Translations under genes and position numbers: made by a program
NCBI RefSeq assembly: GCF_003334335.1
Contig: NZ_QOWQ01000009.1
Origin: Escherichia coli
GTDB lineage: Bacteria > Pseudomonadota > Gammaproteobacteria > Enterobacterales > Enterobacteriaceae
Strand: one strand, 5' to 3'
Length of the DNA stretch: 64,000 bases
Notes under the pieces: model-generated
The model's input: only the letters and a program-made list of their open reading frames with translations
Told to the model about the DNA's origin: nothing
Databases searched by the model: none
Shown here: positions 16,898 to 52,289 of the stretch, piece by piece
How the letters are laid out: every line of letters begins with the position of its first letter
How positions within the stretch are numbered: the first letter of the stretch is position 1

Positions 16898-17926
16898 TTA
16901 CTGCTGGCGTAGCTGGAGATCCAGCGGCGTTTTGCTGGGTTCGCCGCCAATTTCTCGCGCCAGTTTCGGCACCAGATATCCCGACACCAGTGTCAGCAAC
17001 TCACGCATAATCTGCCGTGCTTCGTCATCACTCACCATAAAATGCGCCGCGCCCTGTACTTTATCGAGCACATGCAGGTAATACGGCATTACGCCGGCAT
17101 CGAACAACGCATTACTCAGGTTTGCCAGCGTTTGTGCGTTATCGTTCACATCACGTAACAGAACGCTCTGGTTCAGCAAAGTAACGCCTACCCGGCGCAA
17201 CTTAGCCATCGCCTGACGGAATGTTTCATCTACCTCATTGGCATGGTTGATGTGATTCACCAGCAAGATTTGCAGCGTAGAACGGGCAAAGCATTCAACC
17301 AGCGCCTCGGTGATACGTGCCGGGATCACAATCGGCAGACGGCTGTGAATCCGCAGACGTTTTATATGCGGGATGGCTTCCAGTTGTGTGAGCAACCAGT
17401 CCAGCTCGTGATCTTTCGCCATCAGCGGATCGCCGCCGGAGAAAATCATCTCGTCCAGTTCCGGATGCGCAGCAACATACTCAAGTGCAGTTTGCCAGTT
17501 ACGCTTGTTGCCCTGATTTTCGGCATAGGGGAAGTGACGACGGAAGCAATAGCGGCAATTTACCGCGCAGCCGCCTTTGACCAGCAAAAGCGCCCGGTTG
17601 TGGTATTTATGCAACAAACCAGGCACTACGCTGTGCTGTTCTTCCAGTGGGTCGGTGGAGAATCCGGGCGCGATGACAAACTCATCTTGCGAGGTAAGTA
17701 CCTGACGCAAAAGAGGATCGTCCGGATTGCCTTTCTCCATGCGATCGATAAATGAGCGGGGCACACGCAGGGCAAAAAGCTTTTTGGCGCTGCGTCCGGC
17801 TAACAGTTTTTCCTCCGCGTCTATATTCAAAAGACGCAGAAGTTCATCAGGATCGGTCACAACATCGGCAAGTTGCGTTAACCAATCTTCTCTGGATGGG
17901 GTATTTAGGGTTACAATATGCGCCAT
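16898..17926 (-). CDS. epmB: EF-P beta-lysylation enzyme EpmB (lysine 2,3-aminomutase-like radical SAM)
   Basis: 342-aa MAHIVTLNTPSREDWLTQLADVV... with a CxxxCxxC radical-SAM motif (CAVNCRYCFRR). Confidence 0.95.
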   Translation of the reverse strand: MAHIVTLNTPSREDWLTQLADVVTDPDELLRLLNIDAEEKLLAGRSAKKLFALRVPRSFIDRMEKGNPDDPLLRQVLTSQDEFVIAPGFSTDPLEEQHSVVPGLLHKYHNRALLLVKGGCAVNCRYCFRRHFPYAENQGNKRNWQTALEYVAAHPELDEMIFSGGDPLMAKDHELDWLLTQLEAIPHIKRLRIHSRLPIVIPARITEALVECFARSTLQILLVNHINHANEVDETFRQAMAKLRRVGVTLLNQSVLLRDVNDNAQTLANLSNALFDAGVMPYYLHVLDKVQGAAHFMVSDDEARQIMRELLTLVSGYLVPKLAREIGGEPSKTPLDLQLRQQ

Positions 17927-17967: not shown

Positions 17968-18534
17968 ATGGCAACGTACTATAGCAACGATTTTCGTGCT
18001 GGTCTTAAAATCATGTTAGACGGCGAACCTTACGCGGTTGAAGCGAGTGAATTCGTAAAACCGGGTAAAGGCCAGGCATTTGCTCGCGTTAAACTGCGTC
18101 GTCTGCTGACCGGTACTCGCGTAGAAAAAACCTTCAAATCTACTGATTCCGCTGAAGGCGCTGATGTTGTCGATATGAACCTGACTTACCTGTACAACGA
18201 CGGTGAGTTCTGGCACTTCATGAACAACGAAACTTTCGAGCAGCTGTCTGCTGATGCAAAAGCAATTGGTGACAACGCTAAATGGCTGCTGGATCAGGCA
18301 GAGTGTATCGTAACTCTGTGGAATGGTCAGCCGATCTCCGTTACTCCGCCGAACTTCGTTGAACTGGAAATCGTTGATACCGATCCGGGCCTGAAAGGTG
18401 ATACCGCAGGTACTGGTGGCAAACCGGCTACCCTGTCTACTGGCGCTGTGGTTAAAGTTCCGCTGTTTGTACAAATCGGCGAAGTCATCAAAGTGGATAC
18501 CCGCTCTGGTGAATACGTCTCTCGCGTGAAGTAA
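17968..18534 (+). CDS. efp: Elongation factor P
   Basis: 188-aa [24 protein letters not shown]... Confidence 0.98.
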
Positions 18535-24911: not shown

Positions 24912-25889
24912 ATGAGCGAAACGGCATCCTGGCAGCCGAGCGCATCCATTCCTAACTTATTAAAACGCGCGGCGATTATGGCGGAGATCCGTCGTTTCTT
25001 TGCCGATCGTGGAGTGCTGGAGGTGGAGACGCCTTGTATGAGCCAGGCGACGGTAACCGATATTCATTTGGTCCCGTTTGAGACACGTTTCGTTGGCCCC
25101 GGGCATTCGCAGGGGATGAATCTCTGGTTAATGACCAGCCCGGAATACCATATGAAACGCCTGCTGGTTGCCGGTTGTGGGCCGGTATTCCAGCTGTGCC
25201 GCAGCTTCCGTAATGAAGAGATGGGGCGTTATCACAACCCTGAGTTCACTATGCTGGAGTGGTATCGACCGCACTATGATATGTACCGGTTGATGAACGA
25301 GGTGGACGATCTCTTACAACAGGTGCTGGACTGCCCGGCAGCAGAAAGCCTTTCTTATCAACAAGCTTTCTTGCGTTATCTGGAAATTGACCCGCTCTCT
25401 GCCGACAAAACGCAACTGCGGGAAGTCGCAGCGAAACTGGATTTGAGCAATGTTGCTGATACCGAAGAAGACCGCGACACGCTGCTACAATTGCTGTTTA
25501 CCTTTGGCGTAGAGCCAAATATTGGCAAAGAAAAACCGACCTTTGTGTACCACTTTCCAGCCAGCCAGGCATCACTGGCGCAAATCAGTACCGAAGATCA
25601 TCGGGTCGCTGAACGCTTTGAGGTTTATTATAAAGGTATTGAGCTGGCGAATGGTTTCCATGAATTGACGGATGCCCGTGAGCAGCAACAACGCTTTGAA
25701 CAAGATAACCGTAAGCGCGCGGCGCGCGGTTTGCCGCAGCACCCCATTGACCAGAATCTGATTGAAGCCTTGAAAGTCGGTATGCCTGACTGTTCCGGCG
25801 TGGCATTAGGTGTTGATCGTCTGGTGATGTTGGCGCTGGGCGCGGAGACACTGGCTGAAGTCATCGCCTTTAGCGTTGACCGGGCATAA
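24912..25889 (+). CDS. epmA: EF-P lysine-lysyltransferase EpmA (PoxA/GenX)
   Basis: 325 aa from [30 protein letters not shown]...; class II aaRS-like. Confidence 0.95.
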
Positions 25890-34628: not shown

Positions 34629-34704
<76 letters not shown>

Positions 34705-34740: not shown

Positions 34741-34816
<76 letters not shown>

Positions 34817-38222: not shown

Positions 38223-39560
38223 ATGATGTATCGCATCAGAAATTGGTTGGTAGCGACGCTGCTGCTGCTGTGCACGCCGGTGGGTGCCGCGACGCTCTCT
38301 GATATTCAGGTTTCTAACGGTAATCAACAGGCGCGGATAACGTTGAGTTTTATTGGCGATCCTGATTATGCGTTTAGCCATCAAAGCAAACGCACCGTGG
38401 CGCTCGATATCAAACAAACGGGCGTGATTCAGGGACTGCCGTTGTTGTTCAGCGGCAATAATCTGGTGAAGGCGATTCGCTCTGGAACGCCTAAAGATGC
38501 ACAAACGCTACGGCTGGTGGTCGATCTTACCGAAAACGGTAAAACCGAAGCGGTGAAGCGGCAGAATGGCAGCAATTACACTGTCGTCTTTACGATTAAC
38601 GCCGATGTGCCGCCACCGCCTCCTCCGCCGCCCGTGGTTGCGAAACGCGTTGAAACGCCTGCGGTTGTCGCACCGCGCGTCAGCGAACCGGCGCGCAATC
38701 CGTTTAAAACGGAAAGTAACCGCACTACGGGTGTTATCAGCAGTAATACGGTAACGCGTCCGGCAGCGCGCGCGACGGCTAACACTGGCGATAAAATTAT
38801 CATCGCTATTGATGCCGGACACGGCGGTCAGGACCCTGGCGCTATCGGCCCCGGTGGTACGCGGGAGAAAAATGTCACCATCGCCATCGCGCGTAAATTG
38901 CGTACTTTGCTCAATGACGATCCGATGTTTAAAGGCGTTTTAACCCGTGACGGGGATTACTTTATCTCGGTGATGGGGCGCAGTGATGTGGCACGTAAGC
39001 AAAACGCCAATTTCCTCGTGTCGATTCACGCTGATGCCGCACCGAACCGCAGTGCGACTGGCGCTTCCGTATGGGTGCTCTCTAACCGTCGCGCCAACAG
39101 TGAAATGGCCAGCTGGCTGGAGCAGCACGAGAAACAGTCGGAGCTGCTGGGTGGGGCGGGTGATGTGCTGGCGAACAGTCAGTCTGACCCCTATTTAAGC
39201 CAGGCGGTGCTGGATTTACAGTTCGGTCATTCCCAGCGGGTAGGGTATGATGTAGCGACCAGTATGATCAGTCAGTTGCAACGCATTGGCGAAATACATA
39301 AACGTCGACCAGAACACGCCAGCCTTGGCGTTCTGCGCTCGCCGGATATCCCATCAGTACTGGTCGAAACCGGTTTTATCAGCAACAACAGCGAAGAACG
39401 TTTGCTGGCGAGCGACGATTACCAACAACAGCTGGCAGAAGCCATTTACAAAGGCCTGCGCAATTACTTCCTTGCGCATCCGATGCAATCTGCGCCGCAG
39501 GGTGCAACGGCACAAACTGCCAGTACGGTGACGACGCCAGATCGCACGCTGCCAAACTAA
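38223..39560 (+). CDS. amiB: N-acetylmuramoyl-L-alanine amidase AmiB
   Basis: 445 aa from [27 protein letters not shown]... with the Ami_3 amidase domain. Confidence 0.95.
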
Positions 39561-42829: not shown

Positions 42830-44110
42830 TTGTTTGACCGTTATGATGCTGGTGAGCAGGCGGTACTGGTACACATCTATTTTACGCAAGACAAAGATAT
42901 GGAAGACCTCCAGGAGTTTGAATCTCTGGTCTCTTCCGCCGGTGTCGAAGCATTGCAGGTGATTACCGGTAGCCGTAAAGCGCCGCACCCAAAGTATTTT
43001 GTAGGTGAAGGTAAAGCAGTTGAAATTGCGGAAGCTGTCAAAGCGACGGGTGCTTCGGTCGTTCTTTTTGACCATGCCCTGAGCCCGGCGCAAGAGCGTA
43101 ACCTGGAGCGTTTGTGCGAGTGTCGTGTTATCGACCGCACCGGCCTTATTTTAGATATTTTCGCCCAACGTGCGCGTACCCATGAGGGTAAGTTGCAGGT
43201 TGAGCTGGCGCAGCTGCGCCATCTGGCTACGCGCCTGGTGCGTGGCTGGACCCACCTTGAAAGACAGAAAGGCGGGATAGGTTTGCGTGGTCCGGGTGAA
43301 ACCCAGCTCGAAACCGACCGTCGTTTGTTGCGTAATCGCATCGTGCAGATACAGTCGCGCCTGGAAAGAGTTGAAAAGCAGCGTGAGCAGGGGCGGCAAT
43401 CGCGTATCAAAGCCGACGTTCCTACTGTTTCGCTGGTGGGATATACCAACGCCGGTAAATCTACCCTTTTCAATCGCATCACCGAAGCGCGGGTCTACGC
43501 GGCAGACCAGTTGTTTGCCACCCTCGACCCGACGTTGCGGCGTATTGACGTTGCAGATGTCGGTGAAACCGTACTTGCAGATACCGTAGGGTTTATTCGC
43601 CACCTGCCGCACGATCTGGTGGCGGCATTTAAAGCCACGTTACAAGAGACGCGGCAAGCCACATTACTGCTGCACGTCATTGATGCGGCGGATGTGCGTG
43701 TACAAGAAAACATCGAAGCGGTGAATACGGTTCTTGAAGAGATCGACGCTCACGAGATCCCAACCCTGCTGGTGATGAACAAGATCGATATGCTGGAAGA
43801 TTTCGAACCGCGTATTGATCGGGACGAAGAGAACAAACCGATCCGTGTCTGGCTTTCCGCACAGACCGGAGCGGGGATACCACAGCTTTTTCAGGCTTTG
43901 ACGGAGCGGCTTTCCGGCGAGGTGGCGCAGCATACATTGCGTCTGCCACCGCAGGAAGGGCGTCTGAGAAGTCGTTTTTATCAGCTTCAGGCAATAGAAA
44001 AAGAGTGGATGGAGGAGGACGGCAGCGTAAGTCTGCAAGTTCGTATGCCGATCGTTGACTGGCGTCGCCTCTGTAAACAAGAACCGGCGTTGATCGATTA
44101 CCTGATCTAA
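42830..44110 (+). CDS. hflX: Ribosome-associated GTPase HflX
   Basis: 426-aa protein with a GTPase domain (GYTNAGKST); TTG start. Confidence 0.95.
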
Positions 44111-44195: not shown

Positions 44196-45455
44196 ATGGC
44201 GTGGAATCAGCCCGGTAATAACGGACAAGACCGCGACCCGTGGGGAAGCAGCAAACCTGGCGGCAACTCTGAGGGAAATGGAAACAAAGGCGGTCGCGAT
44301 CAAGGGCCACCTGATTTAGATGATATCTTCCGCAAACTGAGCAAAAAGCTCGGTGGTCTGGGCGGCGGTAAAGGCACCGGATCTGGCGGTGGCAGTTCAT
44401 CGCAAGGCCCGCGCCCGCAGCTTGGCGGTCGTGTCGTTACCATCGCAGCGGCAGCGATTGTCATTATCTGGGCGGCCAGTGGTTTCTATACCATTAAAGA
44501 AGCCGAACGCGGCGTGGTAACACGCTTTGGTAAATTCAGCCATCTTGTTGAGCCGGGTCTGAACTGGAAACCGACGTTTATCGACGAAGTCAAACCGGTG
44601 AACGTGGAAGCCGTGCGTGAACTGGCCGCTTCTGGTGTGATGCTGACGTCGGACGAGAACGTAGTGCGCGTTGAGATGAACGTGCAGTACCGCGTCACCA
44701 ATCCGGAAAAATATCTGTATAGCGTGACCAGCCCGGATGACAGCCTGCGTCAGGCTACCGACAGCGCCCTGCGTGGAGTTATCGGTAAATACACCATGGA
44801 CCGCATTCTGACGGAAGGTCGTACCGTGATTCGTAGCGATACTCAGCGCGAACTGGAAGAGACGATTCGTCCGTATGACATGGGTATCACGCTGCTGGAC
44901 GTCAACTTCCAGGCTGCTCGTCCGCCGGAAGAAGTAAAAGCGGCGTTTGACGATGCGATTGCCGCGCGTGAAAACGAACAGCAATACATTCGTGAAGCAG
45001 AAGCGTATACCAACGAAGTTCAGCCGCGTGCGAACGGTCAGGCGCAACGTATCCTCGAAGAGGCGCGTGCGTACAAGGCCCAGACCATCCTGGAAGCTCA
45101 GGGTGAAGTGGCGCGCTTTGCTAAACTTCTGCCGGAATATAAAGCCGCGCCGGAAATTACTCGCGAGCGTCTGTATATCGAGACGATGGAAAAAGTGTTG
45201 GGTAACACCCGCAAAGTGCTGGTTAACGATAAAGGTGGCAACCTGATGGTTCTGCCGTTAGACCAGATGCTGAAAGGTGGTAACGCCCCTGCGGCGAAGA
45301 GCGATAACGGTGCCAGCAATCTGCTGCGTCTGCCGCCAGCCTCTTCCTCCACAACCAGTGGAGCAAGCAACACGTCGTCCACCAGTCAGGGCGATATTAT
45401 GGACCAACGCCGCGCCAACGCGCAGCGTAACGACTACCAGCGTCAGGGGGAATAA
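44196..45455 (+). CDS. hflK: FtsH modulator HflK (SPFH family)
   Basis: 419-aa MAWNQPGNNGQDRDPWGSSKPGG... Confidence 0.97.
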   Translation: MAWNQPGNNGQDRDPWGSSKPGGNSEGNGNKGGRDQGPPDLDDIFRKLSKKLGGLGGGKGTGSGGGSSSQGPRPQLGGRVVTIAAAAIVIIWAASGFYTIKEAERGVVTRFGKFSHLVEPGLNWKPTFIDEVKPVNVEAVRELAASGVMLTSDENVVRVEMNVQYRVTNPEKYLYSVTSPDDSLRQATDSALRGVIGKYTMDRILTEGRTVIRSDTQRELEETIRPYDMGITLLDVNFQAARPPEEVKAAFDDAIAARENEQQYIREAEAYTNEVQPRANGQAQRILEEARAYKAQTILEAQGEVARFAKLLPEYKAAPEITRERLYIETMEKVLGNTRKVLVNDKGGNLMVLPLDQMLKGGNAPAAKSDNGASNLLRLPPASSSTTSGASNTSSTSQGDIMDQRRANAQRNDYQRQGE

Positions 45456-48811: not shown

Positions 48812-51253
48812 ATGTCACAAGATCCTTTCCAGGAACGCGAAGCTGAAAAATACGCGAATCCCATCCCTAGTCGGGAATTTATCCTCGAACATTTAACCAA
48901 ACGTGAAAAACCGGCCAGCCGTGATGAGCTGGCGGTAGAACTGCACATTGAAGGCGAAGAGCAGCTTGAAGGCCTGCGTCGCCGCCTGCGCGCGATGGAG
49001 CGCGATGGTCAACTGGTCTTCACTCGTCGTCAGTGCTATGCGCTGCCGGAACGCCTCGACCTGGTGAAAGGTACCGTTATTGGCCACCGTGATGGCTACG
49101 GCTTTCTGCGGGTTGAAGGGCGTAAAGATGATTTGTATCTCTCCAGCGAGCAGATGAAAACCTGCATTCATGGCGATCAGGTGCTGGCTCAGCCGCTGGG
49201 TGCTGACCGTAAAGGTCGTCGTGAAGCGCGTATTGTCCGCGTACTGGTGCCAAAAACCAGCCAGATTGTTGGTCGCTACTTTACCGAAGCGGGCGTCGGC
49301 TTTGTGGTTCCTGACGACAGCCGTCTGAGCTTCGATATCTTAATCCCGCCCGATCAGATCATGGGCGCGCGGATGGGCTTTGTGGTCGTAGTCGAACTGA
49401 CTCAGCGTCCGACTCGCCGCACCAAAGCGGTGGGTAAAATCGTCGAAGTGCTGGGCGACAATATGGGCACCGGCATGGCGGTTGATATCGCTCTGCGTAC
49501 CCATGAAATTCCGTACATCTGGCCGCAGGCTGTTGAGCAACAGGTTGCCGGGCTGAAAGAAGAAGTGCCGGAAGAAGCAAAAGCGGGCCGTGTTGATCTG
49601 CGCGATTTACCGCTGGTCACCATTGATGGCGAAGACGCCCGTGACTTTGACGATGCAGTTTACTGCGAGAAAAAACGCGGCGGCGGCTGGCGTTTATGGG
49701 TCGCGATTGCCGACGTCAGCTACTATGTGCGTCCGTCAACGCCGCTGGACAGAGAAGCGCGTAACCGTGGCACGTCGGTGTACTTCCCTTCGCAGGTTAT
49801 CCCGATGCTGCCGGAAGTGCTCTCTAACGGCCTGTGTTCGCTCAACCCGCAGGTAGACCGCCTGTGTATGGTGTGCGAGATGACGGTTTCGTCGAAAGGC
49901 CGCCTGACGGGCTACAAATTCTACGAAGCGGTGATGAGCTCTCACGCGCGTCTGACCTACACCAAAGTCTGGCATATTCTGCAGGGCGATCAGGATCTGC
50001 GCGAGCAGTACGCCCCGCTGGTTAAGCATCTCGAAGAGTTGCATAACCTCTATAAAGTGCTGGATAAAGCCCGTGAAGAACGCGGTGGGATCTCATTTGA
50101 GAGCGAAGAAGCGAAGTTCATTTTCAACGCTGAACGCCGTATTGAACGTATCGAACAGACCCAGCGTAACGACGCGCACAAATTAATTGAAGAGTGCATG
50201 ATTCTGGCGAATATCTCGGCGGCGCGTTTCGTTGAGAAAGCGAAAGAACCGGCACTGTTCCGTATTCACGACAAGCCGAGCACCGAAGCGATTACCTCTT
50301 TCCGTTCAGTGCTGGCGGAGCTGGGGCTGGAACTGCCGGGCGGTAACAAGCCGGAACCGCGTGACTACGCGGAGCTGCTGGAGTCGGTTGCCGATCGTCC
50401 TGATGCAGAAATGCTGCAAACCATGCTGCTGCGCTCGATGAAACAGGCGATTTACGATCCAGAAAACCGTGGTCACTTTGGCCTGGCATTGCAGTCCTAT
50501 GCGCACTTTACTTCGCCGATTCGTCGTTATCCAGACCTGACGCTGCACCGCGCCATTAAATACCTGCTGGCGAAAGAGCAGGGGCATCAGGGCAACACCA
50601 CTGAAACCGGCGGCTACCATTATTCGATGGAAGAGATGCTGCAACTGGGTCAGCACTGTTCGATGGCGGAACGTCGTGCCGACGAAGCAACGCGCGATGT
50701 GGCTGACTGGCTGAAGTGTGACTTCATGCTCGACCAGGTAGGTAACGTCTTTAAAGGCGTAATTTCCAGCGTCACTGGCTTTGGCTTCTTCGTCCGTCTG
50801 GACGACTTGTTCATTGATGGTCTGGTCCATGTCTCTTCGCTGGACAATGACTACTATCGCTTTGACCAGGTAGGGCAACGCCTGATGGGGGAATCCAGCG
50901 GCCAGACTTATCGCCTGGGCGATCGCGTGGAAGTTCGCGTCGAAGCGGTTAATATGGACGAGCGCAAAATCGACTTTAGCCTGATCTCCAGCGAACGCGC
51001 ACCGCGCAACGTCGGTAAAACGGCGCGCGAGAAAGCGAAAAAAGGCGATGCAGGTAAAAAAGGCGGCAAGCGTCGTCAGGTCGGTAAAAAGGTAAACTTT
51101 GAGCCAGACAGCGCCTTCCGCGGTGAGAAAAAAACGAAGCCGAAAGCGGCGAAGAAAGACGCGAGAAAAGCGAAAAAGCCATCGGCGAAAACGCAGAAAA
51201 TAGCTGCAGCGACCAAAGCGAAGCGTGCGGCGAAGAAAAAAGTGGCAGAGTGA
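48812..51253 (+). CDS. rnr: Ribonuclease R
   Basis: 813 aa from [23 protein letters not shown]... with RNB and S1 domains and a Lys-rich tail. Confidence 0.97.
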
Positions 51254-51310
51254 TCAATACCCTCTTTAAAAGAAGAGGGTTAGATTGCTGACAAAATGCG
51301 CTTTGTTCAT

Positions 51311-51407
51311 GCCGGATGCGGCGTGAACGCCTTATCCGGCCTACATAATCACGCAAATTCAATATATTGCAGAGATCATGTAGGCCGGATAAACGTAGTG
51401 CATCAGG
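51311..51407. repeat. REP elements
   Basis: GCCGGATGCGGCGTGAACGCCTTATCCGGCCTAC and an inverted TGTAGGCCGGATAAACG...CATCAGGC copy. Confidence 0.8.
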
Positions 51408-51432
51408 CAAAACGTAAACAACGAGTACATTA

Positions 51433-52164
51433 ATGAGCGAAATGATTTACGGCATCCACGCAGTGCAGGCCCTGCTGGAGCGCGCCCCTGAACGTTTTCA
51501 GGAAGTCTTTATTTTAAAAGGCCGTGAAGATAAACGTCTGTTACCGCTGATTCACGCCCTTGAGTCTCAGGGCGTGGTTATCCAGTTGGCAAACCGCCAA
51601 TATCTCGACGAGAAAAGCGACGGTGCCGTGCATCAGGGCATTATCGCCCGCGTGAAGCCAGGACGTCAGTATCAGGAAAACGATCTGCCGGATCTGATCG
51701 CTTCGCTCGATCAACCGTTCCTGCTGATCCTCGACGGCGTAACCGATCCGCACAACCTCGGCGCGTGCCTGCGTAGTGCGGACGCCGCAGGCGTTCATGC
51801 GGTGATTGTGCCGAAAGATCGCTCCGCACAGCTCAACGCTACGGCGAAAAAAGTAGCCTGCGGCGCGGCAGAAAGCGTTCCGCTGATTCGGGTGACTAAC
51901 CTTGCGCGCACCATGCGTATGTTGCAGGAAGAGAATATCTGGATCGTCGGTACGGCAGGCGAGGCGGATCATACACTCTATCAGAGCAAAATGACCGGAC
52001 GCCTGGCGCTGGTGATGGGTGCGGAAGGTGAAGGTATGCGTCGCCTGACTCGTGAACATTGCGATGAGTTGATCAGCATCCCGATGGCTGGAAGCGTTTC
52101 TTCCCTGAACGTTTCGGTTGCGACCGGAATTTGCTTATTTGAAGCGGTGCGCCAGCGCAGCTAA
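51433..52164 (+). CDS. rlmB: 23S rRNA (Gm2251) 2'-O-methyltransferase RlmB
   Basis: 243-aa [26 protein letters not shown]...; SpoU family. Confidence 0.95.
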
Positions 52165-52180
52165 TTTCTCAGAATTATGA

Positions 52181-52210
52181 AAAGCCATCCAGATTTGGAT
52201 GGTTTTTTTT
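52181..52210 (+). terminator. rlmB intrinsic terminator
   Basis: CCATCCA-GATT-TGGATGG hairpin followed by T8. Confidence 0.8.
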
Positions 52211-52289
52211 GTCTATAGCTGGTAAGATAATTACGTATTGCAAATATTCATTTTATTAATATTTAAACTTAATCTATATGGAATAATAT

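Follow-up and report, generated by a model that had tools for sequence, protein, structure and literature searches.

An eight-proline run where the AMIN domain of Escherichia coli AmiB ends: a likely spacer with an EF-P-relieved stall, near the EF-P genes most likely by coincidence

The amiB gene of Escherichia coli encodes an N-acetylmuramoyl-L-alanine amidase with a run of eight consecutive prolines, and in the stretch of DNA analysed here (64,000 nucleotides, called the window) it is found together with efp, epmA and epmB, the genes for elongation factor P (EF-P) and two enzymes of its modification pathway. Two questions follow: why such a run stands in this protein, and whether its closeness to the genes of the factor that relieves stalling at prolines carries any meaning. 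A first-pass annotation, made from the sequence alone, had pointed to the combination and called it an illustration of a dependency and not a novelty. Our answer, which we consider very probably right, is that the run is a clade-specific feature at the exit of the AMIN domain and likely a spacer, that it gives rise to a stall relieved by EF-P, and that its co-location with the EF-P genes is coincidental.

The three EF-P pathway genes were identified by scoring their products against NCBIfam equivalog models and by the RefSeq annotation (Table 1). The efp product scores 253.6 bits against TIGR00038 (cut-off 185.8), EpmB, a radical SAM enzyme of the lysine 2,3-aminomutase family, 533.9 bits against TIGR03821 (cut-off 369.3), and EpmA 604.4 bits against NF006828 (cut-off 264). 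Each score is above the equivalog cut-off, RefSeq agrees, and the positions coincide with those in the K-12 RefSeq record after an offset of 111 bases; the placement of efp, epmB and epmA in the one window, as first annotated, is therefore correct. In E. coli, EpmB makes beta-lysine and EpmA attaches it, giving active EF-P. We take the tight efp-epmB pair with epmA nearby to be a known conserved arrangement, one that helped to predict the pathway. PMC4231759 names the hydroxylase YfcM/EpmC as the third pathway enzyme, and YfcM/EpmC is not among the annotated genes of the 64-kb window.

Direct reading of the run gives ccg cca ccg cct cct ccg ccg ccc, eight proline codons that translate in frame with the plus-strand open reading frame ending at position 39560. 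Given the annotated ATG and a product of 445 aa, they encode residues 130-137 of AmiB (P8). The first-pass annotation had read the run in the same way, and the gene is also the one it had named: AmiB matches the NCBIfam equivalog NF007751 over residues 1-445 of 445 with 977.4 bits (cut-off 532), RefSeq gives the same annotation, and the amiB DNA is 100% identical to that of amiB in E. coli K-12 BW25113. All four proline codons are used within the run. Two or more consecutive prolines in a translated frame mark an EF-P stalling motif, and P8 is one. In none of the six frames of the window is there another proline run of more than four, and no other annotated gene there has at least three prolines in succession. 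Runs of this type are expected by chance about 2-4e-5 times per E. coli-sized proteome, calculated from the observed proline frequency, and about 1e-5 times per strand of the window, calculated from the CC/GG dinucleotide content. Because of these low expected counts, chance is ruled out as the origin of the eight-proline run.

Table 1. Positions in the window of the EF-P pathway genes, of amiB and of the parts of its product
Feature	Position	Strand	Basis
efp, elongation factor P, the stall-relieving factor	17968..18534	+	NCBIfam TIGR00038, RefSeq
epmB, EF-P beta-lysylation protein, divergent from efp	16898..17926	-	NCBIfam TIGR03821, RefSeq
epmA, EF-P--(R)-beta-lysine ligase	24912..25889	+	NCBIfam NF006828, RefSeq
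amiB, N-acetylmuramoyl-L-alanine amidase AmiB, 445 aa	38223..39560	+	NCBIfam NF007751, RefSeq, K-12 identity
AMIN domain, residues 23-127	38289..38603	+	Pfam PF11741; AlphaFold2 strands
Interdomain linker, residues 128-191, predicted disordered	38604..38795	+	pLDDT, secondary structure
Eight-proline-codon run, ribosome-stalling motif	38610..38633	+	Sequence, translation, published asymmetry scores
Amidase_3 catalytic domain, residues 192-418	38796..39476	+	Pfam PF01520; structure model

The domain layout of AmiB was taken from Pfam matches and from an AlphaFold2 model that used 42 homologues and has a mean pLDDT of 81.6. The AMIN domain (PF11741) was matched at residues 27-112 with E = 8e-4, and the model has beta-strands at residues 23-127 with block-mean pLDDT mostly about 90 or above. 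Ahead of it stands an N-terminal hydrophobic helix, presumably the export signal, and we take AmiB to be exported by the Sec pathway and to fold in the periplasm. The Amidase_3 domain (PF01520) was matched at residues 194-413 with E = 4e-48. Between the two, a segment of roughly 64 residues has pLDDT block means of 40-58 and no secondary structure, and AmiB thus consists of AMIN and Amidase_3, both confidently predicted, joined by a low-confidence linker. According to the model, P8 begins three residues past the last AMIN strand, at the N-terminal end of this linker.

In the window annotation amiB stands between tsaE and mutL. The same neighbours were found in Citrobacter and one or two other relatives, within flanks of at most 2.5 kb, and in one relative a mutL-sized product, judged by its size, is encoded downstream of amiB. 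[quoted passage not shown] When the surroundings of amiB were scanned for promoters and terminators, no hit rose above the level expected from shuffled sequence, and no promoter-like site was seen in or around the run. The ribosome-rescue GTPase gene hflX lies at 42830-44110, downstream of amiB in the super-operon, and the genes of the window that concern the quality of translation include efp, epmA, epmB, hflX, rsgA, miaA, tsaE, rnr and rlmB.

Compared with K-12, the window is not uniform. Positions 4706-50000 are about 99.96% identical to the BW25113 record, while positions 50001-63999 are 99.03% identical to the K-12 record (135 mismatches in 14 kb), with an indel after 50 kb; the drop in identity near 50 kb suggests either a recombination boundary or a strain other than K-12 whose central segment resembles K-12. 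Two tandem tRNA-Gly(GCC) genes are present, at 34629-34704 and 34741-34816, where the BW25113 substrain record NZ_CP069133.1 annotates three tRNA-Gly genes, and the window has one 111/112-base unit fewer. Positions 1-4705, to the left of a tRNA-Phe gene (4820-4895, minus strand), do not align with the cadCBA region of BW25113 and are probably strain-specific or island DNA beside that gene. This also rules out that cadC, the first EF-P client to be described, is present at the window start, where K-12 annotation would place it.

Peptide bonds between successive prolines form slowly, and without help from EF-P ribosomes stall at P8. Published data bear directly on this. A 2015 NAR paper called the amiB run the longest run of proline codons in E. 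coli and reported a ribosome footprint peak at it in wild type (PMC4402525), in line with the initial judgement that the run is not a novelty. For the dependence on EF-P we used a 2024 ribosome profiling study of BW25113 that compared wild type, an efp deletion, an efpL deletion and an efp deletion overexpressing EfpL (PMC11611912). Its Supplementary Data 3B gives an asymmetry score for each tripeptide, in amiB for six PPP positions and then PPV. In wild type the PPP scores are 1.24, 1.20, 1.17, 1.15, 1.10 and 1.05, with 1.00 for PPV; in the efp deletion they are 6.74, 7.44, 8.09, 8.91, 9.71 and 10.50, with 10.39 for PPV, from which we computed a 5- to 10-fold higher asymmetry without efp (PMC11611912). 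The efpL deletion gave scores of 2.94 falling to 1.01 and the efp deletion overexpressing EfpL scores of 3.77 rising to 6.68, and the EF-P paralogue EfpL is reported to give partial help at the run (PMC11611912). When the criteria as printed on that sheet are applied to the scores, the amiB run belongs among the motifs that both factors help, EF-P more strongly than EfpL.

The dependence on EF-P claimed for the run is thus confirmed in BW25113, with asymmetry of 1.0-1.2 in wild type against 6.7-10.5 in the efp deletion (PMC11611912). The check proposed with that claim, profiling of an efp mutant against wild type, already exists in print, and a lack of EF-P-dependent pausing is not what it found. 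In the literature on AmiB together with EF-P, efp or stalling, the 2015 paper (PMC4402525) was the sole relevant main text found; amiB is not mentioned in Elgamal 2014 or its supplements, and for mutants of epmA or epmB our literature search returned no data specific to amiB. Since E. coli EF-P generally requires beta-lysylation, EpmA and EpmB would be needed at the run too. Synthesis of the AmiB protein was reportedly tested early on, in Ude et al. 2013 or else in Peil et al. 2013, and our conclusions do not draw on that test. Four points are already published: the run, its rank as the longest of the species, the wild-type pause and the strong dependence on EF-P.

The closest known counterpart is the PPPIP motif of CadC, the first described case of EF-P-dependent stalling, with which amiB shares consecutive prolines and a strong rise in asymmetry when efp is absent. 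The absolute rise in the efp deletion is up to 9.5 for amiB, larger than that listed for cadC in the same dataset (8.2-8.5 for PPI/PPP), and cadC is listed as 'efp only' whereas amiB is partly rescued by EfpL (PMC11611912). The run of eight prolines in amiB is also much longer than the CadC motif. At CadC the stall reportedly sets the copy number of this regulator, an account that goes back to Ude et al. 2013; the run in AmiB is not known to have a regulatory effect. AmiA and AmiC share the Amidase_3 catalytic domain with AmiB, but the motifs listed for them have little or no EF-P-dependent pausing, the scores without efp going from 0.79 to 1.65 at DPG in amiA and from 0.60 to 0.52 at PPA in amiC (PMC11611912). 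Within the window, hflK (44196-45455) is a second gene with published EF-P-dependent pausing: it carries three PP motifs, and its PPE is listed as 'efp only', with asymmetry of 1.45 in wild type and 4.49 in the efp deletion (PMC11611912 Supplementary Data 3C).

We examined how constant the run is within the species by searching 5,426 complete E. coli genomes with a 121-base query across it. Matches of at least 95% identity came from 4,551 genomes; nearly all rows sampled from this group were full length (P8) and a few were three bases shorter (P7). The other 875 genomes matched at lower identity, and the ten rows sampled from them were all six to eight bases shorter. Two short alleles were counted. 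One encodes PPSPPP and was found in 698 of the 5,426 genomes (12.9%) with at most one mismatch to the allele query; the other encodes six prolines (P6) and was found in 131 (2.4%). Altogether P8 is present in about 84% of complete E. coli genomes, and a six-codon segment takes its place in about 16%, or one in six. Carriers of PPSPPP include Nissle 1917, ATCC 25922 and strains named UPEC, all of which we take to belong to phylogroup B2. The short alleles share one six-base gap and both end in CCA; what sets them apart is the third codon, TCG in PPSPPP and CCG in P6. Some P8 alleles differ from one another only silently, for example by CCG to CCT at the third or the eighth codon.

A near-full-length match to amiB is kept in 5,425 of the 5,426 genomes. 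Among E. coli and Shigella there are AmiB variants of 412-420 aa that have in-frame linker deletions of about 25-31 residues; these deletions fall roughly between residues 150 and 185, downstream of the run, and all of the variants keep P8. Given the number of genomes with short alleles, the run itself is dispensable to AmiB. Two individual strains have rearrangements at this locus. In strain D3 (NZ_CP010140.1, locus 789-2356) amiB is annotated as a pseudogene that lacks its N-terminus and directly follows a frameshifted IS1 transposase, leaving a remnant without signal sequence, AMIN domain or proline run. In strain M15 (NZ_CP185789.1) amiB has 1374 bases and encodes 457 aa, and a 36-base in-frame insertion upstream of the run places P8 at residues 142-149.

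Beyond E. coli we compared the best 120 AmiB clusters formed at 90% identity, most of them from Citrobacter. The longest proline run in the linker was P8 in 98 of these, P6 in 10, P3 in 5, P4 in 3, and P9 and P7 in 2 each. The Citrobacter AmiB, 88% identical to that of E. coli, has exactly eight prolines, and five of the eight codons are silently different. The rate is similar to that of the whole gene, in which 177 of 389 identical residues have different codons, and these silent changes indicate that the run was conserved at the protein level and does not simply go back to DNA shared recently. The linker after the run is less well kept, with 37 of 53 residues identical (138-190) against 215 of 225 in the catalytic domain. 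Representatives that are 73-79% identical carry PPPPSAP, PSPPPPP or P6. Homologues at 68% identity or below, which include named Yersiniaceae and Sodalis clusters, mostly have one or two prolines and no long run in the linker; among 46 two-domain representatives, 31 have no adjacent linker prolines and 9 have only a pair. Exact retention of P8 across Escherichia and Citrobacter favours some constraint on it, and what has been selected could be the pause and not a spacer. In the 5.1-Mb genome GCA_002886105.1 (CP025776.1), nnr, tsaE, amiB and mutL are each split into several short ORFs, which looks like an error-rich assembly and not like real pseudogenes; an AmiB fragment from it carries PSPPPPP.

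The reading that we prefer is structural. P8 follows the AMIN domain, the septal-targeting part of this cell-division amidase, at the head of a disordered linker that leads to the catalytic domain, and most likely serves there as a short, stiff polyproline spacer at the AMIN exit. Its dependence on EF-P would then be mainly a cost of the proline sequence and not its purpose. Polyproline motifs are reported to be enriched just after domain ends and in linkers, and the pause has been proposed to aid co-translational folding (Qi et al. 2018, PMC5811046). The zone of enrichment in that work extends from -2 to +9 relative to the domain end, and the amiB run begins within it. The folding rationale fits AmiB poorly, because folding of this protein takes place in the periplasm after export through Sec. 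Proline-rich rigid spacers are found in other envelope proteins, such as the Glu-Pro/Lys-Pro region of TonB and the Ala-Pro hinge of OmpA. Like the segment in AmiB, these are extended, proline-rich stretches that join two modules of a periplasmic or envelope protein; they alternate proline with other residues, however, whereas P8 is pure proline, an uncommon composition that costs far more in translation.

The main rival to a spacer that brings a cost is that the stall is itself selected. AmiB output would then be coupled to EF-P activity, as for CadC, and there may be polarity on the genes downstream, since lost coupling of transcription and translation might affect the rest of the super-operon; P8, P6 and PPSPPP would amount to throttles of different strengths. 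We regard this as unlikely, although several observations fit it. Eight prolines are kept exactly in both E. coli and Citrobacter despite silent changes in five of the eight codons and a linker in which only 37 of 53 residues are identical, the stall in the efp deletion is very strong, a pause is still visible in wild type (PMC4402525), amiB is the first gene of its super-operon, and EF-P is reported to maintain transcription-translation coupling (PMC5021804). Against these stands the six-codon segment in about 16% of complete E. coli genomes, healthy Nissle 1917 included, as well as one strain in which IS1 truncation has removed the run-bearing N-terminal part of amiB. A long run is missing from the closest homologues with less than 70% identity, which include one named Yersiniaceae; these bacteria use the same EF-P lysylation pathway. 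Moreover, a wild-type asymmetry of about 1 means little throttling as long as EF-P is present, and we know of no condition under which E. coli regulates EF-P activity. The extra promoters upstream of hfq would blunt any polarity on the distal genes. That selection has kept P8 as an EF-P-gated throttle on AmiB, possibly with polarity on mutL-miaA-hfq, accordingly seems to us rather improbable.

Two further explanations concern the nucleotide sequence of the run, and a third its position on the chromosome. The in-frame variants P6, P7, P8 and P9 among close homologues could be taken as the product of a slippage-prone simple-sequence repeat, a contingency locus that switches or tunes AmiB by length, but the codons are mixed, Tandem Repeats Finder reported no array even at its lowest score threshold, there are few variants in length, and every short allele sampled has a single fixed sequence. 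Every translated variant is in frame, and the near-full-length amiB match in all but one of the 5,426 genomes points the same way; the run does not belong to the contingency repeats, and we give switching very little credence. That features of the mRNA, namely secondary structure or a Shine-Dalgarno-like sequence, cause the pause in place of the prolines is scarcely credible: the segment is indeed G+C-rich, but its local fold has z = +0.78, with 158 of 200 shuffles folding at least as well, the mRNA strand is C-rich with no GGAGG-type sequence, and the pause depends on efp. There is finally the idea that AmiB, as a client, has stayed encoded close to its translation factor so that the two are co-regulated or co-inherited. 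The four genes do fit within 22 kb (between the end of efp and the start of amiB there are 19.7 kb, and 12.3 kb between the end of epmA and the start of amiB), and for one gene specified beforehand the prior of lying within 20 kb of efp is about 1%. The gene was picked, however, after the window had been seen. The 4.63-Mb genome has 79 PPP tripeptides, six of them in amiB (PMC11611912), which corresponds to about 1.1 per 64 kb, and some PPP-bearing gene is therefore to be expected in the same window as efp. Moreover, more than 20 unrelated genes on both strands intervene between efp and amiB in the RefSeq annotation, among them ecnAB, sugE, blc, ampC, frdDCBA, epmA, yjeMNO and mscM, and also psd, rsgA, orn, the tRNA-Gly genes, queG, nnr and tsaE. 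In relatives amiB keeps its own neighbours tsaE and mutL, and in Vibrio cholerae a long distance presumably separates efp from amiB. A functional cluster with the EF-P genes was rejected, as amiB is neither adjacent to them nor in a shared transcription unit and belongs instead to the separate unit with mutL, miaA and hfq. We consider functional co-location highly improbable, and the closeness of amiB to efp and epmA most likely just reflects how the chromosome happens to be laid out.

To what was already in print, the present analysis adds the position of the run at the domain exit, the silent-site evidence that P8 has been retained, and the frequencies of its alleles in E. coli. Were the stall a throttle after all, P8, PPSPPP and P6 would mean that the dependence of septal cell-wall hydrolysis on EF-P is specific to lineages. 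The same natural alleles are a ready-made series for separating structure from translational pause in the role of long proline runs.
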